A stretch of DNA of 64,000 nt, from the NCBI GenBank assembly GCA_902787955.1, contig CADAIJ010000003.1, forward strand, positions 13,907 through 77,906, in the 5' to 3' direction. Made by a program: the position numbers and the translations under genes. Positions 2,461-50,297 of the stretch are shown piece by piece; the first letter of the stretch is position 1, and the number at the start of each line of letters is the position of its first letter. The notes under the pieces were generated by a model, which made no database searches, was not told the DNA's origin, and saw nothing but the letters and a program-made list of their open reading frames with translations. This stretch comes from an uncultured Erysipelotrichaceae bacterium. Lineage in GTDB: Bacteria > Bacillota_I > Bacilli_A > RFN20 > CAG-826.

Positions 2461-4122
2461 ATGGCTGAAACAAAATCCCCAATATCAGTTTACGCATTAG
2501 GCGGCTTATGCGAAGTAGGCAAAAACACTTATTGCATTGAATCAGATCGTTCACTCATCATTATTGATGCTGGTGTTCGTTTTCCTGACGCTAATTTGCC
2601 TGGGGTTAGCTATGTTATTCCTAACTATTCAAAATTAAATCATTCAAGACAAAAAATTAAAGCTTTAATTATCACCCATGGTCATGAAGACCATATCGGC
2701 GCTATTCCATTTTTAGTGCAAAGAGTATATATTCCAGTAATTTACGCGCCTAAACTTGCGGCAGCTTTAATTCGTCATAAATTAGAAGATGCTCGCGTTA
2801 GAGATAAAGTTAATATCGTTGAATATGATTCAGATACTATTTTAAATATTGATGATTTTACTGTTTCATTCTTCTATGTCACCCACTCCATCCCAGATGC
2901 TTATGGGGTTTGTGTGGATACTCCTCAAGGAAGAATTATTCATACTGGAGACTTTAAGATCGATTTGACTCCAGTCGGAAAACAAATTGAATTAAATAAG
3001 ATTTCCCGCTTAGGAAGCGAAGGAGTTGACCTTTTACTTAGTGACTCCACTAACGCGGAAATTGAAGGATATACCCCAAGTGAAACAAACGTTTTGAATT
3101 CAATTAATGATATTTTTGAAGGCACTCCAGGAAGAATTATTCTTTCTACCTTTTCTTCTAACGTTTCTCGTATTCAACAAATCGTTGAAGTTGCGGTTAA
3201 ACATGGAAGATATATCGCAATACTTGGTCGATCAATGGAATATGTTGTCCAAGTTGCTAGAGACTTAGGTTACATTAAGATTCCAGATTCAAGAATTATT
3301 CCAATTAACGAAGTTAACGATTATAAAGCTAACGAAATTTGTGTACTTTGCACTGGTTCACAAGGTGAACCAATGGCGGCTTTATCAAGAATCGCTAATG
3401 GAGAACATAAAGATTTATCCATTATTCCTGGTGATACAGTTGTTTTCTCATCCAGTGCCATTCCAGGAAATGGAGTTTTAATTGAAAGAGTTGTTAACCA
3501 ATTAGTTAGAAAAGGCTGTGAAGTCACAACTAATTCAATTCTTTATTCCGTTCACTCTTCGGGTCACCCATCTAAACAAGAATTAAGATTAATGTTACGT
3601 TTAGTTAATCCTAAATACTTTATGCCGATCCATGGTGATTATAGAATGCTTAAGATTCATGGCAAGATCGCGGAATCTTTAGGTATTCCTGAAGATCATA
3701 TCTTTGTCTTAGAAAACGGTGAATCAATTGTTTTATATAATCACGAAATACATCGTGGTCCTAAATATGATGCTTTCCCAGTATATATTGATGGAAAAGA
3801 TATAAGCGGACTATCTGAAGCCGTGATTAAAGATAGAGAAATATTAAAAGAAGATGGTTTAGTTTCAATTGTGGTTGGAATTAATTCCAAAACAAAGACA
3901 ATTAAATCTGCTCCAAAAGTCATTTCCTATGCTTTTACCGCGGATAAACAAATCATTGATGAAATAACAACTATTACCACTAAAACAATTAATACAATTT
4001 TAGAGAACAGCCAGTCCTTTAATGAACTTAAAACATACATTAAAGATGTTGTTTCTACTTATGTTTATCGTAAGACTGAACGTAGGCCAATGGTCGTTCC
4101 AGTAATCTTAGACGAAAAATAA
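2461..4122 (+). CDS. rnj: Ribonuclease J.
   Basis: 553 aa. Has the metallo-beta-lactamase HGHEDHIG motif, a beta-CASP region and a C-terminal domain. The RBS AGGAGA precedes the ATG. Confidence 0.9.
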   Translation: MAETKSPISVYALGGLCEVGKNTYCIESDRSLIIIDAGVRFPDANLPGVSYVIPNYSKLNHSRQKIKALIITHGHEDHIGAIPFLVQRVYIPVIYAPKLAAALIRHKLEDARVRDKVNIVEYDSDTILNIDDFTVSFFYVTHSIPDAYGVCVDTPQGRIIHTGDFKIDLTPVGKQIELNKISRLGSEGVDLLLSDSTNAEIEGYTPSETNVLNSINDIFEGTPGRIILSTFSSNVSRIQQIVEVAVKHGRYIAILGRSMEYVVQVARDLGYIKIPDSRIIPINEVNDYKANEICVLCTGSQGEPMAALSRIANGEHKDLSIIPGDTVVFSSSAIPGNGVLIERVVNQLVRKGCEVTTNSILYSVHSSGHPSKQELRLMLRLVNPKYFMPIHGDYRMLKIHGKIAESLGIPEDHIFVLENGESIVLYNHEIHRGPKYDAFPVYIDGKDISGLSEAVIKDREILKEDGLVSIVVGINSKTKTIKSAPKVISYAFTADKQIIDEITTITTKTINTILENSQSFNELKTYIKDVVSTYVYRKTERRPMVVPVILDEK

Positions 4123-4123
4123 T

Positions 4124-4666
4124 ATGCTTATCTTAGCTAGTCAATCTCCAAGAAGAAAAGAATTATTAAAGAAAATTGTTCCTGAATTTTTAATTATGCC
4201 TGCGGATGTTGATGAACATTTAAATGTTGATCCATACACTCTTCCTATGGAAGCGGCTTACTTAAAAGCAATGACTATTTTTAAAGATCACCCAAATGAT
4301 GAAGTACTTGGAAGTGATACAGTTGTTATCGTAGATGGAGAATTATTTGGAAAACCTAAAGATGAAAATGACGCTTATAGAATGCTTAAAGCGTTAAGCG
4401 GGAGAGACCATGATGTAGTTAGTGGCTATGCCTACGTTTCAAAGAAAAAAACCATCAAAGGGTCCACTAAAACAGTTGTTCACTTCAACGAACTAAGTGA
4501 TGAAACTATCTGGAAATATATAAAAACAGGCTCGCCTTTAGATAAAGCGGGAGCCTATGGAATTCAAGATGAAGAATTTCATCTAGTTAAATCTATAGAA
4601 GGAAGTTTAGATAACGTAATTGGACTTCCAACTGAAGATATTAAGAAAAATTGTTTTAGTGATTAA
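4124..4666 (+). CDS. maf: Maf-like nucleoside triphosphate pyrophosphatase.
   Basis: 180 aa with the N-terminal LILASQSPRRKELL signature. Confidence 0.85.
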   Translation: MLILASQSPRRKELLKKIVPEFLIMPADVDEHLNVDPYTLPMEAAYLKAMTIFKDHPNDEVLGSDTVVIVDGELFGKPKDENDAYRMLKALSGRDHDVVSGYAYVSKKKTIKGSTKTVVHFNELSDETIWKYIKTGSPLDKAGAYGIQDEEFHLVKSIEGSLDNVIGLPTEDIKKNCFSD

Positions 4667-7211: not shown

Positions 7212-8035
7212 TGGATAGGTATTTAATCGCGATTGATATTGATGGAACTCTTTTAAATAAAGATAGAGTTATTTCAAAAGCGACGAAAGAATATCTTCTT
7301 AAATTATCAAACGAAGGTCATTTAATTGTTCTTGCAAGTGGTAGACCAATTCGTTCACTAGTCCAATTTCACAATGAATTAAAACTAGATACTCCCCTAA
7401 TTTGCTATAACGGAGCGCTAGTTTTTTCTTTAAATGATAAGAATTTTAAGACTAGAGAATATATCTTTAAAAAAGAAATTGTTAACGAAATCTATTATTC
7501 AATAAAGCCATATATTGATAACGCTATGTGCGAAACAAATACTGATATCTATATTGATAAAGTAGATGAAACTTTAGATATCTTCTTTTGGTATAAAGGA
7601 ATGAATATTCATCAAGGTGAATTTAAAGATATTTTAAAAGAAGATGTTATTACTTTTATTGCTAAACTTAATCAAAAAGGTATCGAACATAACGAAGAAA
7701 TCACCAAAAGATGTTCAAAATATGAAGGAATCGAAGAAAGATTCTGGAGAGGTCTTCCTTATGTTGAACTTTATCATAAAAAGGCTACAAAGGGTAATGC
7801 CTTATTAGATATCGCTGAATATTATAAGATTCCTCAGAAGAATATCATTTCTATCGGAGATAGCGATAACGACTTATATATGCTTCAAGTTGCAGGTTAT
7901 GGTGTGGCACTTGCTAACGCAAAAGAGTTCTTAAAAAGTAACGCTGATATAATTACTCAAAAATCAAATCATGAAGATGGAGTTATTGAAGCGATAGAAG
8001 ATATTTTTAACGGAAAATATAAATCAAAATTTTAA
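7211..8035 (+). CDS. Cof-type HAD-IIB sugar-phosphatase-like hydrolase.
   Basis: Has the IAIDIDGTLL motif I and a GDSDNDLYM motif IV. Confidence 0.8.
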   Translation: MDRYLIAIDIDGTLLNKDRVISKATKEYLLKLSNEGHLIVLASGRPIRSLVQFHNELKLDTPLICYNGALVFSLNDKNFKTREYIFKKEIVNEIYYSIKPYIDNAMCETNTDIYIDKVDETLDIFFWYKGMNIHQGEFKDILKEDVITFIAKLNQKGIEHNEEITKRCSKYEGIEERFWRGLPYVELYHKKATKGNALLDIAEYYKIPQKNIISIGDSDNDLYMLQVAGYGVALANAKEFLKSNADIITQKSNHEDGVIEAIEDIFNGKYKSKF

Positions 8036-8997
8036 TCTAATTCAGAAAGAATTTTTTTCTCATTCGCCGGAAGATTTGCGGTGAATTTTTTATTTTTGAG
8101 GTAATTTAAAGGTTCAGGAATATCTTTAAATTCTAATGAATAGGCATGTAAGAATTGATTCTCAAAACCATACAAGGATTTAAAGTCTTTATTAATCTTA
8201 AAATTCCCGTATTTAGCGTCCCCTACTACTGGGTAATTCTTACTAGCGAGGTGAACTCTAATTTGATGTGTTCTTCCGGTAACTAATTCAACATTAACTA
8301 ATGAATATCCTTTAAAGTGTTTATTAATTGAAACTTTAGATAACGCTCTTTGTCCGCCATCTTTTTCTTTTGTAACTTTAACTAAACCACTATTTGGATC
8401 TTTTAATAAAGGCAAATCAATTTCCATATAATTAGGGAAATAACCGATTACTAAAGCTAAATATGTCTTGGTTAATTCAGTTTTATCTTTAAATAATTTT
8501 TCTAAGCAATTTAAAGCGTTTAATGTTTTTGCATACGCAATTATTCCCGATGTATTTCTATCAAGTCTATGCGCTGGAGCAGGAGTAAAACCTTTATCAT
8601 TATTTGGGTCATACTCACCCTTAAAATATAAATAATTTAAGACATCATTAGTTAAAGTTACTCGCTTTTCATTAATATCTCCATGCACTAATAAGCCACG
8701 TGGTTTATTAATAAGGATGATGTTTTCATCTTCATAAATAATTTCATGAGGGAAGTCTTTTTTGATTGTTTCTTTTGGTTTAGAAAATTCTTTAAGTTGA
8801 TCTTCACTAACATATAATGTTATCTCTTCACCTTCATTAATGAAATAATCCTGTTTAACCCAGTGGCCATTCACTTTGACATCTTTCTTCCTGAATAATT
8901 TATAAACAAAAGAAAGAGGTGCCTCATTGAGGTATTTTTTAACAAATTTATCAATACGTTGGTTAGCTTCTTTTGAAGAGACAATTACTTTTATCAT
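8032..8997 (-). CDS. RluA-family 23S rRNA pseudouridine synthase (RluD-like).
   Basis: N-terminal S4 domain plus the catalytic HRLDRNTSG motif. Confidence 0.85.
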   Translation of the reverse strand: MIKVIVSSKEANQRIDKFVKKYLNEAPLSFVYKLFRKKDVKVNGHWVKQDYFINEGEEITLYVSEDQLKEFSKPKETIKKDFPHEIIYEDENIILINKPRGLLVHGDINEKRVTLTNDVLNYLYFKGEYDPNNDKGFTPAPAHRLDRNTSGIIAYAKTLNALNCLEKLFKDKTELTKTYLALVIGYFPNYMEIDLPLLKDPNSGLVKVTKEKDGGQRALSKVSINKHFKGYSLVNVELVTGRTHQIRVHLASKNYPVVGDAKYGNFKINKDFKSLYGFENQFLHAYSLEFKDIPEPLNYLKNKKFTANLPANEKKILSELD

Positions 8998-9055: not shown

Positions 9056-9068
9056 TTAACACAGCGCT

Positions 9069-9159
9069 GGAGGATTACCCAAGAGGCTGAAGGGGTGGGC
9101 TTGGAAAGCTCATAGGTTCCGAAAGGGGCGCTAGGGTTCAAATCCCTAATCCTCCGCCA
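9069..9159 (+). tRNA. tRNA-Ser (anticodon GGA).
   Basis: The acceptor stem GGAGGAT/ATCCTCC is followed by G and CCA. The anticodon loop is TTGGAAA. It has a long variable arm and a GGTTCAAATCC T-arm. Confidence 0.85.
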
Positions 9160-9164
9160 TCCTT

Positions 9165-9310
9165 AATTGTCGAGACACGTAAGTAAAAATACGTGTTTTT
9201 TATTACATTTTTAATATATTTACTATTTCTATGCCACCTGGTTGAGAGTCATATAGGGTTACTCTTTAAACCCCTTATAAAAATTGGATAGACACGAGGG
9301 TTTAACCCTC
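9165..9310. repeat. Composite repeat module, copy A. It consists of the motif TTGTCGAGACAC, hairpin 1, an AT-rich spacer and a degenerate hairpin 2.
   Basis: GACACGTAAGTAAAAATACGTGTTTTTT is a plus-strand terminator for the tRNA. AAACCCCTTATAAAAATTGGATAGACACGAGGGTTT is homologous to the modules at 11727-11900 and 23959-24163. Confidence 0.5.
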
Positions 9311-9454
9311 TTAACCATTTTGAAAAAGAAAAGATGATGAATGTTGTATCGCCCATATGTCCATTTTATTGTATGAAAGGTAAGGAGGGATTGTATTCTT
9401 TTTGATTGGGTTTTATATATTGTTTATTATGAAAACGAATTGAATGTTAAATTA

Positions 9455-10705
9455 TTAATTAAGCAAAAACTTTTTTAGTGGAATAACTTTGATTAAAAAT
9501 CCATCGTTTTCAATTATTTTTTCCTCTTCGTAAGTCACAATCATCAAATTGGATTTGGAATGATTAGCTTTTGCAAAAGCGATTAAATTATTAACTTCAC
9601 GATCATAGGCATCTTTTTCATCGATTGAATACGCTACTTGAATCGCGGTATTAAATTTGGAGAGATAAAAATCAATATCAGTTTTATTGCCTTTGAAGTA
9701 GTAAAGACAATCTTTGTGAGTTCTATATAAATGTAGAGCAACTATATTTTCTAATAGCGAACTTCTTTTATTATCTAAGAAAAGGTTTAATATCCCGTTG
9801 TCCATAAAATAATATTTAGGATTACTATTTTTATCTAAAAAAGAAGCACAATAATTTTCTAGTGTAAACAAGAGAAAAGCATCCTTACAATATCCACAAT
9901 AATCGATAACTATATCTTTAGATATCTTATATCCTATGCCAGTAATAATATTTTGAATCTTAGTAAAAGAAAGGTCATGCTTTACTGATTCAGCAATTTT
10001 TTTAACCATCAGTTTGATGCCGTTTTCATTTCTTATATTGTTATGAACAATAATATCATTATAAAGAACCTTTTGATAAATACTCGAAACATATTCTCTT
10101 TTGTTTTTAAAACTAATAGATTCAGGGAAACCACCATTAACAAAATAATCATTTAATAAACTATTTATTTGTCCAATCTCTTTAACAGAGTATCCATCTT
10201 TGTTTGCTTTGTTAGCTCTTAAAAACTCATCGAAAGAATACGTCATAATTTCCTTAGAAATGTATCTTCCACCTAGTTTTGCTTCCACTTCTTTTGAAAG
10301 CATTTTTGCGTTGCTCCCAGTGATATCAACTTTATATCCTTGATTTGCAACACGAATAGCAAACTTTTCCCAACCATCGATATTTTGAATTTCATCAAAA
10401 TAAAAATAATGTTTTTTATTAGTTAATTCTTCCGCGACTAAAAGAATGTCATCAAAATCATTAGCTGTGAATTCAATCAACCTTTCATCATCAAAATTAA
10501 TATAAATGATTTGTTTCCAATCAACACCTTCATTAATTAATTCTTGCACTCTTTTATAAAGTAATGTTGTTTTGCCTGCTCTTCTTAATCCAACTAGTAC
10601 ATAATTAATGTCTTTTTCTAAAACAATATTCCTGTCAATTATCACAGCATCTTTAATAACTTGATGTTGATCAAAGATAATTCTTTTTAAAGTCTCATGA
10701 TTCAT
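9455..10705 (-). CDS. AAA+ ATPase of the COG1373 family (AAA_14 + DUF4143), paralog 1.
   Basis: Walker A GLRRAGKTTLL and a Walker B-like FDEIQ. 416 aa with a DUF4143-like C-terminus. Confidence 0.8.
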   Translation of the reverse strand: MNHETLKRIIFDQHQVIKDAVIIDRNIVLEKDINYVLVGLRRAGKTTLLYKRVQELINEGVDWKQIIYINFDDERLIEFTANDFDDILLVAEELTNKKHYFYFDEIQNIDGWEKFAIRVANQGYKVDITGSNAKMLSKEVEAKLGGRYISKEIMTYSFDEFLRANKANKDGYSVKEIGQINSLLNDYFVNGGFPESISFKNKREYVSSIYQKVLYNDIIVHNNIRNENGIKLMVKKIAESVKHDLSFTKIQNIITGIGYKISKDIVIDYCGYCKDAFLLFTLENYCASFLDKNSNPKYYFMDNGILNLFLDNKRSSLLENIVALHLYRTHKDCLYYFKGNKTDIDFYLSKFNTAIQVAYSIDEKDAYDREVNNLIAFAKANHSKSNLMIVTYEEEKIIENDGFLIKVIPLKKFLLN

Positions 10706-10795
10706 AAATATTCCCTCTGTCGAGTATATTCTACAATATATATAGATATTTGTCGAGTATGTTATTCACTTATTAAAATTTGTGATTAAATATTA

Positions 10796-10993
10796 CTAGC
10801 ATGCGAACAAGCCTAAAGTAGTAGAAAGCAAGAACTCGCCTTTAAAAACAAAATTTTCAGCATATTGAGATTTTGCTAATCTTTTTAAAAATGCATCAAA
10901 GAAATAATCTTGAAGAATAACGTTTGAAGGAACTCCTTTTTGACTAGACAAATTTTTGATTCTAGCCTGTAATGAATTCTTATTAATTTTCAT
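10796..10993 (-). pseudogene. Truncated AbiEii/AbiGii-family nucleotidyltransferase toxin. Only the N-terminal 65 codons remain.
   Basis: SLQARIKNLSSQKGVPSNVILQDYFFDAFLKRLAKSQYAENFVFKGEFLLSTTLGL matches the conserved N-terminus of DUF1814 toxins. A TAG stop then follows, and unrelated sequence carrying the ATPase1 upstream repeats begins. Confidence 0.6.
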
Positions 10994-11606
10994 TCAAAAG
11001 CACCTCCATTAGACTATTTACTTTATCTTCGATTTTCATTTTACGTGCGTATTGGATAAGCCTATTCACATTTTTATCTTTTCTTTTGCTATACCAGGTT
11101 ACACACTTAACAAAAGATTCCGAATCCAGTTTTTTTCTATTTCTAATGAAATCGCATACTGTCTTTTCAATGTCGTAAACTTTGACCTTGTTGCCAAATG
11201 ATGTTTCAACTTCACTAATACCGAGATTATATGTCGTATCTCTTGTATCCGTATGAAGAATCACGCCATCTCTCGGAAGAGGAAATGGGCGATAATTTTT
11301 TGGAGCAGTTGCTTCTAAAGATGTTGGTATAAAATCACCAAGTCTATGAAGATAAGCAGCTCCATAGAAAGAATAAATTAGTTTCGGGTATTGATATTGG
11401 AAAATAAAATAATCATCCGTCATCCAATCTTCAGTTGAATAAAACCCTGGACACTGTTTTATAAGATTATATTTTTTAATATATTGTGAAAGGATGGATG
11501 TCGGAATATTTGCTTCGCTAACATCTCTTCCAGTAACATAACCGCCATTAGATTTAATAATTTTAGAAATCTTTTCAAAATTAGTCATACTTGCATTTCC
11601 AACCAT
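10983..11606 (-). CDS. AbiEi-family (type IV toxin-antitoxin antitoxin-like) protein.
   Basis: 207-aa protein directly upstream of the AbiEii remnant and overlapping it by 11 nt, the typical abiEi-abiEii operon arrangement. Confidence 0.45.
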   Translation of the reverse strand: MVGNASMTNFEKISKIIKSNGGYVTGRDVSEANIPTSILSQYIKKYNLIKQCPGFYSTEDWMTDDYFIFQYQYPKLIYSFYGAAYLHRLGDFIPTSLEATAPKNYRPFPLPRDGVILHTDTRDTTYNLGISEVETSFGNKVKVYDIEKTVCDFIRNRKKLDSESFVKCVTWYSKRKDKNVNRLIQYARKMKIEDKVNSLMEVLLNEN

Positions 11607-11726
11607 ATAATATTGTTTTGTGGTTTAATTTGCAATATGTTTACACATCCTGTTTATAACAACTTATGAGTTCACTAACATTTGATGCTAATGGAACATC
11701 CTCCATTCTTTCTTGAGTTTTATGTC

Positions 11727-11900
11727 CGTGTATCGACATTTGAGGGCACGATTGATTGTGAAGGCACGTACGAAAAGTGCGTGTTATTTCTTATTTTTGG
11801 GTCCTTTATTTGCTATATTTGGTCTTATGAATATAACTTTAATCAATTTGTATCTGGGCACATAAAAACCCCGTGAAAAATCTGGGCGGACACGAGGTTT
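11727..11900. repeat. Composite repeat module, copy B. It consists of the motif GTGTATCGACA, hairpin 1, an AT-rich spacer and hairpin 2.
   Basis: GGCACGTACGAAAAGTGCGTGTTATTTCTTATTTTT ... AAAAACCCCGTGAAAAATCTGGGCGGACACGAGGTTT. It is about 80% identical to copy C at 24010-24163. Hairpin 2 acts as a minus-strand terminator for ATPase2. Confidence 0.6.
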
Positions 11901-12022
11901 GAACATTGTTTAGTTTTTGTTTGATGGTGATTAGCCATCAAGCACAAAGCATTCATATTCAATAAGTTAAATATAAGTTTCATTATTCACATGAACCGTT
12001 GTAGTTTCTACATTTGGGTCGT

Positions 12023-13387
12023 TCATTCTAATAAAAAAGCTAAGTAATGTGGCAACACTAATAATATATTCCCATCTTCATCTATAGATTCCTTGATATT
12101 GAATTCACCAAACTTAATTAATCGTTTAACTTCTGGATAATCTATCTTATTTGAAATCACAGTTTTCGCGGATTTCGTTTTTCCTGATTTAGCCTTAACT
12201 TCCACCAAAGAGATATCTTTTTTATAGCGAGTAATAAAATCAATTTCTAAACCTGATTCTTTACCATAATAAAACAAATCTTTGCCATTCTTAGTAAAAG
12301 CATCAGCGATAATGTTTTCATATAGAGCGCCTTTATAAGAACCTAATTTACCAAATAAAACATCTTCATATACATCTTTTTCTAACATCGCCATAAAAAG
12401 CCCTGTGTCAGCGACATATAATTTAAAACATTCTTCAATCTTATTTCCTGATAATGGTAGTTCAAGTTGTCTAAGATTATAACAATATGTTACTAAACCA
12501 TAATCCACTAACCATTGAATTGCAGGATCATAAATTGTTGAGGTTGCCTTCTTGGCAACTTTTGAATACATAAACTTTTTATTCTCCTTAGCAAGTTGAG
12601 CAGGAATCGATGCGTAAACTTTATTTATTTTAGCGAGCAAAGCTTTATCAAGTTCTTCTTCTTCGTTTTCATTTAGATGCTTGCCATAATCATCTTTATA
12701 TCCTTCTAAAATATCATTTAAAACTGCTCTTACTTGATTTAGATCATTCGTTTTAAGAAAAGTATCTACTGCTTCTGGCATACCTCCTACACATAGATAT
12801 TCTTTAAAATAACGAGTCATCGCTTCATGGATTGGCTGACGAATATTCTCTTTAGCTTCAAAAGAGGATTTTAAATAATTAATGATATCTTGGCTAATAC
12901 CCTTAGCTAATAAGAACTCTTCAAAATCCATTGGTTTCATATAAACAACATGCTCGTAACCAATAGAAGCTCCACCATGATATTTTTTGTTATATCCTTT
13001 TAATCCTAATAAGGAGCCAGAAGCAATCACATCATAACGATCATCATTTTCTACGAATGATTTAAGAGACGCTCTAGCGCCAGAAGATTCTTGAATTTCA
13101 TCTAAAATGATTACTGTTTTATAAGGAATAAATTTAACATCAGGCCTTAATGCGGAAATATTGGTGGTAATAGTATTAACATCTAAATCTCCATTAAATG
13201 CGGTCTTAAGACTTGGCTCTAATTTAAAATTGATATAAATAACATTTTCATAGTTTTTATTTGCAAAATCTTTGATTGATGTTGTTTTGCCAGTTTGTCG
13301 TAATCCTTTTAATAGAAAAACCTTCCTTTTAGTTTTTAAGTTTTCTTTCCAACTAATAAGCTCTGCTTCAATTTTTCTTTTATACAT
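12023..13387 (-). CDS. AAA+ ATPase of the COG1373 family (AAA_14 + DUF4143), paralog 2.
   Basis: Walker A GLRQTGKTT and a Walker B-like ILDEIQ. 454 aa. Confidence 0.8.
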   Translation of the reverse strand: MYKRKIEAELISWKENLKTKRKVFLLKGLRQTGKTTSIKDFANKNYENVIYINFKLEPSLKTAFNGDLDVNTITTNISALRPDVKFIPYKTVIILDEIQESSGARASLKSFVENDDRYDVIASGSLLGLKGYNKKYHGGASIGYEHVVYMKPMDFEEFLLAKGISQDIINYLKSSFEAKENIRQPIHEAMTRYFKEYLCVGGMPEAVDTFLKTNDLNQVRAVLNDILEGYKDDYGKHLNENEEEELDKALLAKINKVYASIPAQLAKENKKFMYSKVAKKATSTIYDPAIQWLVDYGLVTYCYNLRQLELPLSGNKIEECFKLYVADTGLFMAMLEKDVYEDVLFGKLGSYKGALYENIIADAFTKNGKDLFYYGKESGLEIDFITRYKKDISLVEVKAKSGKTKSAKTVISNKIDYPEVKRLIKFGEFNIKESIDEDGNILLVLPHYLAFLLE

Positions 13388-13406: not shown

Positions 13407-13490
13407 GACTTTTCCAAGCGAATTAACGACAATAGTATAGACTTTTCCAAGCGAATAATCAATAACTCTAAGGATTTTTCCAAGCGAATC
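13407..13490. repeat. Three direct repeats of GACTTTTCCAAGCGAAT in the 5' leader of ATPase2.
   Basis: Copies start at 13407, 13440 and about 13474, spaced 33-35 bp. They create the artefactual SLGKV repeats in the 80-aa ORF 13404..13646. Confidence 0.7.
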
Positions 13491-13527
13491 ATAACGGAAG
13501 ATATAGTCATACACTCTTTTTTGTGTA

Positions 13528-13627
13528 TGTGTACCGACAATTGGTATTTCAAACCCTTGTGTGTACGGACAATTGGAGACAGTATTTATTATATAGACAC
13601 GCGCCATCTTAGGAGCGTGTTTTTTTC
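13528..13627. repeat. Partial repeat module D. It consists of two TGTGTACCGACAATTGG-type direct repeats 32 bp apart plus hairpin 1. Hairpin 2 is absent.
   Basis: TGTGTACCGACAATTGG at 13528 and TGTGTACGGACAATTGG at 13560. Then GACACGCGCCATCTTAGGAGCGTGTTTTTTT follows. The architecture matches 23959-24057. Confidence 0.6.
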
Positions 13628-13783: not shown

Positions 13784-14347
13784 TTATTCTGTTGGGCTGC
13801 AATTATATTTAAGGGTAATGGATGTAATTATGTTAGAACCCATAAGAGTGGCTGCTGATATTGAAAAGTATTTATTCCCGTCAAGTTGACTAAATAACTT
13901 TTCTTGCCCTGCGGTTATAGGAGTAAATGCTGCAAAATCATCTAGAGAATTTCTGCCAAGAACTTGAATATTATTATACTCATATCCATTATCCTTAGTA
14001 TCGATTCTTATAGAATAGAGCGATTGGAATTCACTCTTATTTGAAATTATGCCTCCCTTATTTCCCATGAACTGAAGACCTTCGTCGACCTTAGTGAAAC
14101 AATTATTTGCATTATTTACATTAAATGTTAAAGGATTCCCGCTTGTTGTATTAACCACAAAATCAGAATTGACACTTTCAATATCATTTTTGCAGTCAAT
14201 AACAAGCGTATAAAGTGGTATATCAGCTTTAACAATATTAACAGCTTGTAATCCATTAGAGTTAGACATTGCTGCTACACCAACAGTGCCAACGACTGCT
14301 GTACATATAGCGAGTGATGCTAAGATAAGTTTCTTATGACTATTCAT
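13784..14347 (-). CDS. Secreted hypothetical protein with a signal peptide.
   Basis: The N-terminus MNSHKKLILASLAICTAVVGTVGVAA is signal-peptide-like. A perfect RBS AAAGGAGGAATTATT precedes the ATG. Confidence 0.6.
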   Translation of the reverse strand: MNSHKKLILASLAICTAVVGTVGVAAMSNSNGLQAVNIVKADIPLYTLVIDCKNDIESVNSDFVVNTTSGNPLTFNVNNANNCFTKVDEGLQFMGNKGGIISNKSEFQSLYSIRIDTKDNGYEYNNIQVLGRNSLDDFAAFTPITAGQEKLFSQLDGNKYFSISAATLMGSNIITSITLKYNCSPTE

Positions 14348-22431: not shown

Positions 22432-22470
22432 AAACCCCATGAAAAACTGGATGGACACGAGGTTTAAACC
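22432..22470. repeat. Hairpin-2 element of the repeat family, acting as a minus-strand terminator for ATPase3.
   Basis: GAAACCCCATGAAAAACTGGATGGACACGAGGTTTAAACC is homologous to 11865-11900 and 24128-24163. Confidence 0.5.
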
Positions 22471-22476
22471 ATTTCA

Positions 22477-23730
22477 CTATATAGAGGAAACAGGAAGAAC
22501 ATAACAATCTTCACCGATTGAATAAATCGCGTGAGTAGTACACACTATTGCATTTTTGGTGCGTCTAAGCTTTGTTGATTTGAATAAGTCAAAGGCTTTT
22601 ATATCGTCCTTTTTATATGTTTCTCCACTTTTTAATTCCACTAGAGAAATATTACCGTCGAATACTATCACTAAATCAACTTCATTCTTATCAAAGGTTC
22701 TAAAATAATAGAAAGATGTATTGACATCCTTGTGGTTGTTTTTATAACTTTTAAGTATTTCATTGATAATATAAGTTTCAACGATATGTCCCTTTAAATA
22801 AGAGTTTTTTAATGTCTCTGGAGAATTAACTCTTGCTAAATAACACGCCAATCCTGTATCGGAGAAATATACTTTTGGTCTTTTAACAACCCGTTTAGAA
22901 ACACTTTCTTCATAATATGGTTGCAATAAATGGATTATATTTCCAGCTACCAAAACACTAATCCAAGATTGTACGGTTTTCATATCTATCCCAACTTCTT
23001 TTGCTAAATTGTCATAGATTAATTCTTGGCCAGTAAGAGAAGCTAATATTGTCATAAAATTAATGAATTTTTGCTTGTCTTTTAATGTTATTAAATCCGA
23101 GACGTCTCTTTCTAAGTAAGTTGTTACGTAATCTGAATAAAATGAACCAGTATCCAAATCCTTATTATCATAAAGTTCTGGATAAAAGCCTCTTACAATG
23201 TATTCATAAAGGTTATTCGTTTCAATCATATATGTATTACATCTTTCGTTAATATGATTGATATCAATTACAAATGGTTGTTCAGAAACATTATTAATCT
23301 CACTCAGAGATAATGGTTCCATTGAAATAAGACCAACCCGACCAGACATAGACTCAGTAATGCCTTTCATAAGTTTATAGGCTTGAGAGCCTGTCAAAAC
23401 ATACAAGCCTCTCTTTTTTCCAGACTTAATATGAGCATCCACTGCACCTTCTAAATAATCAAATAGCTCTGGAGCTTTCTGTATTTCATCAATAATATAT
23501 GGAGCTGGATGAAGAGATAAAAATTCAGCAGGATCATTTTTGGCTGCGTTTCTAACAAGTGGATCCGCTAAAGAAACATACCCGAACCCTAAATCTTTTT
23601 CAATCAAACCACATAAAGTCGTTTTTCCGACTTGCCTAGCGCCTGTAATAACGGTAACGGCTTTGTTTTTAATTGTTTTAATAATTTCTCGATAAATTGT
23701 TCTTTCAATCATTATTTTTACCTCAAACAT
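22477..23730 (-). CDS. AAA+ ATPase of the COG1373 family (AAA_14 + DUF4143), paralog 3.
   Basis: Walker A GARQVGKTTL and a Walker B-like IIDEIQ. 417 aa. Confidence 0.8.
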   Translation of the reverse strand: MFEVKIMIERTIYREIIKTIKNKAVTVITGARQVGKTTLCGLIEKDLGFGYVSLADPLVRNAAKNDPAEFLSLHPAPYIIDEIQKAPELFDYLEGAVDAHIKSGKKRGLYVLTGSQAYKLMKGITESMSGRVGLISMEPLSLSEINNVSEQPFVIDINHINERCNTYMIETNNLYEYIVRGFYPELYDNKDLDTGSFYSDYVTTYLERDVSDLITLKDKQKFINFMTILASLTGQELIYDNLAKEVGIDMKTVQSWISVLVAGNIIHLLQPYYEESVSKRVVKRPKVYFSDTGLACYLARVNSPETLKNSYLKGHIVETYIINEILKSYKNNHKDVNTSFYYFRTFDKNEVDLVIVFDGNISLVELKSGETYKKDDIKAFDLFKSTKLRRTKNAIVCTTHAIYSIGEDCYVLPVSSI

Positions 23731-23958: not shown

Positions 23959-24163
23959 TATGTGTATCGACAATTAGTCTTAGAACCCTGTATGTGTATC
24001 GACAATTGAAGACATCAATGATTGTCAAGACACGTATAAAAAAGTTCGTGTTTTTTCTTATTTTTTGGCATTTTTTGCTATATTAGGTCTTGGAACACGG
24101 TTTTATTCAATTTATAACTGGACACATAAAAAACCCCGTGAAAATCTCGACGGACACGAGGTT
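23959..24163. repeat. Composite repeat module, copy C. It consists of two TATGTGTATCGACAATT direct repeats 32 bp apart, hairpin 1, an AT-rich spacer and hairpin 2.
   Basis: Direct repeats at 23959 and 23991. GACACGTATAAAAAAGTTCGTGTTTTTT at about 24037. AAAAAACCCCGTGAAAATCTCGACGGACACGAGGTTT at about 24127. Confidence 0.6.
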
Positions 24164-24182
24164 TATACTTTTTTTGCAATAA

Positions 24183-49781: not shown

Positions 49782-49866
49782 GCAGTGATGGCGGAACTGG
49801 TAGACGCGTACGTTTGAGGGGCGTATAGGGCAACCTGTGTGAGTTCGATTCTCATTCACTGCACCA
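49782..49866 (+). tRNA. tRNA-Leu (anticodon GAG).
   Basis: Acceptor GCAGTGA/TCACTGC followed by A and CCA. Anticodon loop TTGAGGG. Long variable arm. Confidence 0.8.
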
Positions 49867-49979: not shown

Positions 49980-50297
49980 TTATTTTTTGTTAATAAAAAT
50001 TGAACTTAACTTATTATTTATTGAAACGAGTTTTGATACCTGAGTTTCTAAATCTTCTAATTTTAATTGTAGTTGCCTATATTCTTTCTCTAATGCCTTG
50101 TACTTTGCTGTTAATTCAGTGCAAGTTAATGTATCCGGGTGAGGATAATTTGTATAACGTTTATCGTTTTCAAAATATTTGTTCCAAAAGAAAACTGTTG
50201 AAGGAGCTATTTTGTATTTATCAGAAATTTCTGTAATAGTTTTTCCTTGTTTAAACTCATCAACTACTTTTTTCTTAAATTCTTGTGTATATGCCAT
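49980..50297 (-). mobile_element. Orphan IS3-family transposase OrfA-like HTH protein. No OrfB and no inverted repeats were found.
   Basis: 105 aa. The N-terminal HTH (KTITEISDKYKIAPSTVFFWNKYF) is followed by a leucine-zipper coiled coil. It is adjacent to tRNA-Leu. The downstream gene is unrelated. Confidence 0.5.

Follow-up and report, generated by a model that had tools for sequence, protein, structure and literature searches.

An abortive-infection operon of the AbiE type lies in the 64,000-nucleotide (nt) stretch of DNA analysed here, hereafter the window (contig CADAIJ010000003.1 of assembly GCA_902787955.1, from an uncultured Erysipelotrichaceae bacterium), and it is highly likely that this operon has recently been inactivated by truncation of its toxin gene. 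The antitoxin and autorepressor gene, abiEi (10983..11606, minus strand), forms an open reading frame (ORF) of 207 amino acids (aa) without lesion. It is followed by codons 1–61 of what in relatives is a 280-codon gene for a DUF1814 nucleotidyltransferase toxin, abiEii (10811..10993, minus), and there the toxin ends. A first-pass annotation had described this locus as a decayed abiE pair with its toxin cut at codon 65; the truncation stands, but the position does not, since homology to abiEii ends at 10811 and the cut accordingly falls at codon 61/62. The 65-codon ORF seen in the window (10796..10993, minus) is completed by four junction-derived codons, LFAC, and a TAG stop (10796..10810, minus), which at the same time form the outermost part of the upstream module of a neighboring ATPase gene, ATPase1. 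In agreement with that first reading, the antitoxin has been left as an orphan in an island adjoining a tRNA-Ser gene (anticodon GGA; 9069..9159, plus).

The antitoxin gene and its promoter

Family assignment of both ORFs rests on PADLOC profiles, solved structures, and orthologues rather than on Pfam or NCBIfam, which returned nothing significant for either ORF (no Pfam match at all for the one of 207 aa). The PADLOC AbiEi profile PDLC02225 matches this ORF end to end (expectation value, E, 9.4e-58; residues 6–206 against profile positions 3–197 of 198). A profile built from the 207-aa protein and 35 homologues matches the solved structures of Streptococcus agalactiae AbiEi (6y8q, E 3.6e-54) and of AbiGI (9hlo_A, E 2.1e-54), and the match to 6y8q covers AbiEi residues 8–200, as expected of a two-domain antitoxin of about 200 aa, in which a winged helix-turn-helix (N-terminal) precedes an antitoxin domain (C-terminal). 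Homologues (n = 76) are mostly 201–209 aa long, and some bear PF13338. The 207-aa ORF is AbiEi, as had been proposed for the upstream ORF of the pair.

The true start of AbiEi is probably the ATG at 11588, giving a protein of 201 aa, because the ATG at 11606 directly abuts the −10 hexamer and the PADLOC match begins at residue 6; the PDB profile alignments begin at profile positions 5 and 8, which fits this choice. At its other end, abiEi extends 11 nt past the abiEii start (ATGAAAATTAA, minus strand), and relatives with intact genes are arranged alike.

Promoter scanning and conservation together define an abiE promoter with an operator-like inverted repeat at 11591..11635 (minus). The −35 hexamer TTGCAA (11635..11630) and the −10 hexamer TATTAT (11612..11607) are separated by a 17-nt spacer and score 9/12 matches in the scan, and the promoter block is conserved in all seven of the relatives aligned. 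Overlapping both hexamers is the inverted repeat, comprising TTGCAAATTAAACCACA, an 11-nt spacer, and then TATGGTTGGAAATGCAA. Its matching positions number 13 of 17 in one close relative (L013, described below) and 12 of 17 in the window; the repeat was read by eye and, in the window, was missed by a repeat finder using 6-nt seeds. Its half-sites, TTGC..ACCACA, resemble the IR1/IR2 operator of S. agalactiae, TGTTGCTTTTATACCACA..., which is bound by AbiEi (PMC3985639). Because gene, promoter, and operator-like repeat are all intact, AbiEi is probably still made and probably still represses its own promoter. The ratio of non-synonymous to synonymous substitution rates (dN/dS) of abiEi is 0.07–0.09 over long range and 0.17–0.26 among close relatives.

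The toxin remnant and its breakpoint

For the 65-aa ORF, the Pfam AbiEii match is marginal (E 0.21, profile positions 2–28), whereas the PADLOC AbiEii profile PDLC02288 gives a significant one (E 7.6e-18, profile positions 7–66 of 294). The intact 280-aa AbiEii of the relative L012, itself a member of Pfam AbiEii (PF08843, E 7e-41) and a match to the solved AbiGII structure 9hlo_B (E 5e-62), provided a tblastn query with which residues 1–62 were aligned to 10993..10808 at 95% identity (E 3e-33). These matches uphold the earlier assignment of the ORF to the N-terminus of AbiEii/DUF1814 toxins. The same search, in all six frames, found no other abiEii match in the 64 kb (next match E 9.5) and hence no 3′ fragment of the gene; nor was a full-length toxin recovered through an alternative frame or start. 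A genetic code reading TGA as tryptophan was considered as the cause of the short ORF and rejected: the stop is TAG, and long ORFs of the window are intact under translation table 11.

Alignment with intact relatives, which like the tblastn search had been suggested as a check on the initial reading, places the breakpoint at nt 10811. Window DNA is 97% identical to L012 and to L013 from upstream of abiEi to this nucleotide (codon 61), and no further; at the protein level, codons 1–61 show about 95% identity to the toxin N-terminus of both relatives. Codons 62–65 and the TAG belong to the junction sequence and not to abiEii. What follows the cut is, as had been claimed, unrelated sequence, namely the ATPase1 upstream region with its repeats.

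The remnant is also deficient in the motifs by which AbiEii toxins are recognized, the DUF1814 nucleotidyltransferase motifs I (hG[G/S]), II (DhD), III, and IV. Motif I of L012 AbiEii, G52-G53, reads G52-E53 in the window peptide (GG to GE); motif II of L012 AbiEii consists of R64 and D68xD70, and the window peptide ends at residue 65, before motif II, so that motifs II–IV are absent. In S. agalactiae AbiEii, both toxicity and binding of guanosine triphosphate (GTP) are abolished by mutating motif I, II, III, or IV, the toxicity-abolishing residues being G49 (I); R63, D67, and D69 (II); K173 and R180 (III); and D192 (IV) (PMC3985639). With motif I mutated and motifs II–IV gone, each of them needed in the S. 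agalactiae protein, the 65-aa remnant is a dead toxin, and its product is predicted to be incapable of poisoning the cell or aborting phage infection.

Repeated toxin loss among relatives

A scan based on an AbiEi alignment, with one genome per species, yielded 80 loci. The two closest of these having sequence downstream of abiEi are L012 (“Bacillales bacterium UBA2450”; AbiEi 98% identical) and L013 (a rumen “Erysipelotrichaceae” metagenome-assembled genome, MAG; AbiEi 96% identical). Both have the order abiEi, uninterrupted 280-codon abiEii, short untranslated region (UTR), a hairpin termed R, and tRNA-Ser. They are the only two to keep the toxin among six loci whose abiEi is at least 95% identical at the DNA level; the other four have each lost it differently and independently. 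In L014 (AbiEi 95% identical), abiEii carries five in-frame stops, a 16-bp deletion, and a frameshift, and is otherwise full length. In L015, an internal deletion between two ATTTTAGA microhomologies has left 68 codons, while L016 displays precise removal of the gene between ATGAAAATTAATAAG and TAAATAAG (AATAAG repeats). The window, with its module-associated truncation, is the fourth case.

Toxin loss extends to farther relatives. A frameshifted abiEii is present in L001–L005, the gene is wholly absent from L006–L011, and it carries stops, frameshifts, or truncations in L017, L019, L023, L024, L037, and L039; about half of the loci with AbiEi identity of at least 45% retain an intact toxin of 270–294 aa. 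Where abiEii is truncated, the length of the remnant is different in every lineage. Errors of MAG assembly may account for some of these lesions, whereas the deletions are robust, and the presence of abiEi in every case is to be read in light of a search that was conditioned on abiEi. The 180-aa AbiEii of L001 was first read as cut by an insertion sequence (IS), a reading rejected once tblastn revealed a frameshifted full-length gene.

The antitoxin gene of L015 (2688–3218) has itself lost 31 codons in frame, corresponding to residues 27–57, the recognition part of the winged helix-turn-helix. On this evidence the orphan antitoxin of L015 appears to be decaying in its turn, as would be expected of a passenger.

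A further feature of several relatives is a gene of about 298 aa encoding a Fic/DOC domain, conserved beside abiEi or in tRNA-Ser-linked arrays (L001, 4868–5761; L006, 6849–7745; L105, 497–1393; L096, 1390–2313). The window island has none.

An ATPase module begins at the breakpoint

Directly downstream of the abiE remnant, with 90 bases separating the end of the 65-codon ORF from the gene start, lies ATPase1 (9455..10705, minus), which encodes a protein of 416 aa with AAA_14 (Pfam E 2e-30) and DUF4143 (E 1.6e-13) domains and matches the PADLOC profile PDC-S01 (E 1.3e-89). A second DUF4143 ATPase gene, ATPase2 (12023..13387, minus), lies upstream of abiEi, and an ORF at 22477..23730 (minus) is the third; in all three, AAA_14 is followed by DUF4143, giving three paralogues in 64 kb. 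Window DUF4143 ATPases match PDC-S01 with E-values of 1e-89 and 2e-133, and a defence role for ATPases of this type is to be taken as a candidate annotation only. A literature search on DUF4143 returned nothing on function or mobility.

The ATPase1 upstream region (10706..10795, minus) is conserved in L014, L094, L096, and L100. It contains two direct repeats, TGTCGAGTAT(A/G)TT, at 10718–10735 and 10751–10768, 33 nt apart, and a promoter-like site, TCGACA-17-TAGAAT, at 10756..10728. Such gene-specific direct repeats, with a 33-nt period, stand just before the ATPase starts at both 13407–13489 and 10718–10768: three copies of GACTTTTCCAAGCGAAT precede ATPase2, and two copies of TGTCGAGTAT.. precede ATPase1. 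These gene-specific repeats may be operator sites.

Orthologues of ATPase1 with 91–95% identity occupy unrelated gene contexts in other genomes, and among close relatives the gene is absent from L012, L013, L015, and L016, just as ATPase2 is absent from L015. Because of these unrelated contexts and this presence and absence among close relatives, the DUF4143 ATPase genes would seem to be mobile, one gene to a unit.

The outer end of the ATPase1 module coincides with the end of the toxin. ATPase1 modules of L096, L097, and L099 are 92% identical to the window from 10810 to 9235, and the DNA to their left is unrelated; abiEii homology thus stops at 10811, and module homology starts at 10810. L014 presents a third arrangement, in which a full-length abiEii pseudogene is followed by the left arm of the R hairpin and then by the same ATPase1 gene; relative to it, 730 bp (L014 967..1696) are absent from the window. 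To within about 3 nt, one and the same module end is therefore joined on its left to three different sequences: codon 61 of abiEii in the window, unrelated DNA in L096 and, in L014, the left arm of the R hairpin. In sequence, this end amounts to half an R hairpin, in diverged form. At the junction, the L096 left flank resembles abiEii in 13 of 19 positions, a weak similarity that on inspection was put down to chance.

Only this left end, at 10810, can be called a discrete module boundary, because the candidate for a right end of a mobile ATPase cassette, a second hairpin (H2) with CAACCAGGTG, is a conserved flank of tRNA-Ser; it was rejected as a cassette end when a metagenome scan revealed the same flank beside other neighbors. 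Synonymous divergence (dS) between the window and L014 is 0.39 for ATPase1 versus 0.10 for abiEi, a roughly fourfold difference from which it follows that ATPase1 was not co-inherited with abiE. Between the window and the L094 copy, at an unrelated locus, the dS of ATPase1 is 0.19.

How the toxin was lost

We consider it somewhat likelier true than false that the remainder of the toxin gene, together with about 22 nt of its 3′ UTR, was removed when DNA was rearranged at the outer boundary of the ATPase1 upstream module. That boundary consists of half an R hairpin, the hairpin that is also found after tRNA-Ser. Events could have run in either of two orders: the ATPase module may have arrived with loss of target DNA, or it may have arrived first, with a deletion then extending from its end. 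In combination, the arrangement in L014, the module ends of L096/L097/L099, and the dS comparisons suggest that loss of the toxin body probably involved the ATPase module or else the hairpin at the module end, a structure prone to recombination. Displacement of the toxin body by the ATPase1 cassette or its repeat module, as originally put forward, is therefore plausible in view of the 10811/10810 coincidence and the dS values, with L014 and a potential later deletion weighing the other way. Without the toxin, abiEi would have no addiction function, and it is most likely a passenger heading for decay, as in L015.

Several points weigh against a module-mediated loss, or limit what can be drawn from it. 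The ATPase1 module coexists with a full-length, albeit pseudogenised, abiEii in L014, so arrival of the module alone does not truncate the toxin. The breakpoint coincidence is based on three lineages and is precise to about 3 nt. Pfam and PADLOC scans detected no recombinase or transposase gene within 9.1–14.5 kb, and for this reason no enzyme can be named for such an event. Changes in abiEi private to the window lineage, three synonymous and four non-synonymous, are too few to judge relaxation, and a second, trans-acting AbiEii may be encoded elsewhere in the genome, outside the 64 kb. Finally, a plain later deletion of 730 bp would be an equally simple route. In that scenario, which we regard as less likely than not but as a serious rival, an L014-like ancestor with abiEi, full abiEii, R hairpin, and ATPase1 lost the 730 bp by an ordinary deletion, either illegitimate or stimulated by the hairpin, while the module remained passive. 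L014 has exactly this arrangement, including the segment that the window lacks; one end of the deletion would fall in the hairpin loop, a plausible slippage hot spot; and microhomology deletions of abiEii are known in the clade from L015 and L016. However, the disparity in dS between ATPase1 and abiEi means that L014 is no simple ancestor-like state, L096 uses the same end point against an unrelated flank, and microhomology at the junction amounts to only about 1 nt.

Two further explanations carry much less weight. It is quite unlikely that the locus has become a neo-functionalised unit, in which AbiEi, with or without the 65-aa peptide, regulates or partners ATPase1 through a read-through operon abiEi-abiEii′-ATPase1, or confers anti-addiction immunity against incoming abiE elements. 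Such a role would suit an intact abiEi with a conserved promoter and operator-like repeat, the lack of a strong minus-strand terminator between abiEi and ATPase1, the intact AbiEi of many toxin-less relatives, and the low long-range dN/dS, which holds even between two toxin-less lineages. But the low dN/dS may predate toxin loss, and the junction joining abiEi, remnant, and ATPase1 occurs only in sequences identical to the window. ATPase1, moreover, has its own promoter-like site and stands alone in other genomes, while the L015 abiEi has shed 31 codons of its DNA-binding domain and abiEii remnants share no common length from one lineage to another. An artefact of assembly or binning, that is, a chimeric join at a repeat of abiEii codon 61 to the ATPase module, is scarcely credible. 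The region is indeed rich in dispersed repeats, and one public scaffold, L093, ends within the remnant, at window position 10923. On the other hand, window 12100..9064, a segment of 3,037 nt with the junction inside it, recurs at 100% identity in the Logan assembly of ERR3275108 (L092), and because that assembly was made independently the junction is not an assembly artefact; the junction also lies outside any long repeat, and the abiEii sequence beside it occurs only once in the window. The 26-mer across the junction had 0 exact matches in JGI metagenomes, and the deletion allele was met only in assemblies identical to the window. A rearrangement involving the module end remains the account that we favor for the loss of the toxin.

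Repeats and gene units beside tRNA-Ser

The variable region is anchored by the tRNA-Ser gene, a call that rests on ARAGORN and not on Rfam, which at gathering thresholds found no RNA family in the island and matched only six tRNAs in the window, at 54–55 kb. An RluD-type pseudouridine synthase gene occupies 8032..8997. From tRNA-Ser to a gene for an MscS channel, the intervening 4.6 kb form a mosaic of three units: ATPase2, abiE, and ATPase1. At the far edge of the variable region is a 187-aa ORF (13784..14347, minus) with a hydrophobic N-terminal segment and no Pfam match, which is kept beside the MscS channel gene in L015, L092, and L093.

The conserved 3′ flank of tRNA-Ser (9160..9310, plus) consists of two hairpins. 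R, with its T-run (about 9160–9228), has the form AAAAAACACGTA-loop-TACGTGTCTCGACAATCG and abuts the tRNA-Ser 3′ end; H2 (9268–9306) reads AAACCCC...GACACGAGGKTT and lies about 65 nt from R. As a composite repeat, the pair occurs in three copies on the plus strand (9160–9310, 11754–11905, and 24013–24165), with H2 alone at 22432–22470. Each composite copy adjoins a DUF4143 ATPase gene, that at 24013–24165 adjoining the third one. The second copy, upstream of abiEi, belongs to a repeat module (11718..11905, plus) with a box at 11725–11740, the R hairpin at 11754–11801, and H2 at 11866–11904, and forms the border between the abiE unit and the ATPase2 unit. In L015, which has no ATPase2, there is a single R where the window has R on each side. 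The H2-R-tRNA-Ser flank is kept in seven of seven metagenome loci (L102–L108) irrespective of upstream content, and its upstream neighbors include distant DUF4143 ATPases, a Fic gene, and a serine-recombinase remnant.

The box just mentioned is a 13-nt sequence, ATTGTCGATACAC, whose density in the 450 nt preceding DUF4143 ATPase genes, 2.66 per kb, is about 50 times that found elsewhere (0.05 per kb), as counted in the fetched loci, which are partly redundant. Its motif, ATTGTCGA(T/G)ACAC, forms direct repeats about 32 nt apart upstream of ATPase genes and appears in inverse orientation inside R. Instances in the window lie on the minus strand at 13526–13541, 13560–13576, 23959–23974, 23991–24006, and 11725–11740, and on the plus strand at 9166, 11755, and 24021. 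These repeats may serve in recombination, or they may be no more than shared terminators and operators.

Two traces of mobile elements were seen in passing. Directly beyond the H2-R-tRNA-Ser flank of L108, a locus from a close relative whose RluD is 98% identical, there is a 5′-truncated remnant of a large serine recombinase (4052–4472, plus; Pfam Zn_ribbon_recom, E 1.8e-7), which hints that recombinase-bearing elements have used the tRNA-Ser site. Elsewhere in the window, a lone 105-aa ORF for an IS-type transposase helper (49980..50297, minus; HTH_Tnp_1, E 1.4e-6), with no adjacent catalytic ORF, is probably an insertion-sequence remnant beside tRNA-Leu (49782–49866).

A more speculative proposal, to which we attach a rather low probability, is that the truncation is the footprint of an undescribed cassette system. 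Its modules—single-gene DUF4143 ATPases of PD-(D/E)xK type, abiE, and Fic—would be bounded by the tRNA-Ser terminator hairpin R and the box ATTGTCGATACAC. Either a recombinase with its gene elsewhere or the ATPase-nuclease itself would act at the hairpin to insert, exchange, and delete them. If this were true, tRNA-Ser would be flanked by an integron-like array of defence and toxin genes, in which a module is able to disable the one next to it.

Significance

As a degraded toxin-antitoxin locus of a known kind, the window operon matters little in itself. There is nevertheless a practical consequence for annotation: public assemblies list the 65-aa ORF as a gene, and pipelines should not take the locus for a functional AbiE defence system. 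Together with its relatives, the window provides a natural series in which abiEi differs by no more than 5% and which comprises the intact operon, a point-mutated pseudogene, two microhomology deletions, a module-associated truncation and, in one case, a decaying orphan antitoxin. The series illustrates the order of decay—toxin, then antitoxin—as well as the rapid shedding of AbiE toxins in gut and rumen Bacilli. Of more interest than toxin decay is a by-product of the analysis, the array of repeat-bounded cassettes next to tRNA-Ser. Its layout suggests that DUF4143 ATPase genes may move as small repeat-bounded units beside tRNA-Ser, and such movement, if confirmed, would bear on how defence islands are assembled.

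Comparison with known systems

AbiE, as described from S. agalactiae and Lactococcus lactis, is a type IV toxin-antitoxin and abortive-infection system (Dy et al. 2014, PMC3985639), in which AbiEi represses the operon and neutralises AbiEii, a GTP-binding nucleotidyltransferase (PMC3985639). More recently, AbiEi was reported to bind AbiEii and to induce its inactivating auto-phosphorylation, and reclassification as type VII was proposed (bioRxiv 10.64898/2026.01.19.700257). The window locus resembles AbiE in that abiEi precedes abiEii with overlapping stop and start codons, in that its AbiEi shares the two-domain family of the solved structure 6y8q, and in that its toxin N-terminus is of the DUF1814 family. 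It departs from AbiE in the extent of the gene overlap, 11 nt versus 4 nt, and, more fundamentally, in a toxin of 61 native codons without motifs II–IV, which makes no working toxin-antitoxin or abortive-infection module. By antitoxin, gene order, and putative promoter architecture, the locus is assigned to the AbiE family; with the toxin motifs mutated or missing, it is classed as a remnant, predicted not to work. AbiG (AbiGI/AbiGII, solved as the complex 9hlo) offers the best structural match both for the window AbiEi (E 2e-54) and for the L012 toxin (E 5e-62), although in the window, unlike AbiG, only the AbiGI-like partner is intact.

The surroundings of the operon can be compared with tRNA-linked islands and integron-like cassette arrays. 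In contrast to such arrays, the island holds no integrase or recombinase gene, its units bear their own promoters, its repeats also look like ordinary terminators, and the mobility of its units is deduced from comparison only. The likenesses are that the variable region adjoins a tRNA gene; that hairpin repeats, one of which adjoins the tRNA, stand between units of one or two genes (DUF4143 ATPases, abiE and, in relatives, Fic); and that presence or absence of the units is polymorphic between close relatives.

The closest parallel to the operon as it now stands is with degraded toxin-antitoxin loci generally. Mutations that inactivate a toxin are tolerated, whereas loss of the antitoxin is lethal while the toxin is active, and toxin-first decay that leaves orphan antitoxins is well established. 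The window locus follows this pattern without essential difference: the toxin has been lost first and the antitoxin kept, and the same has happened repeatedly in close relatives.

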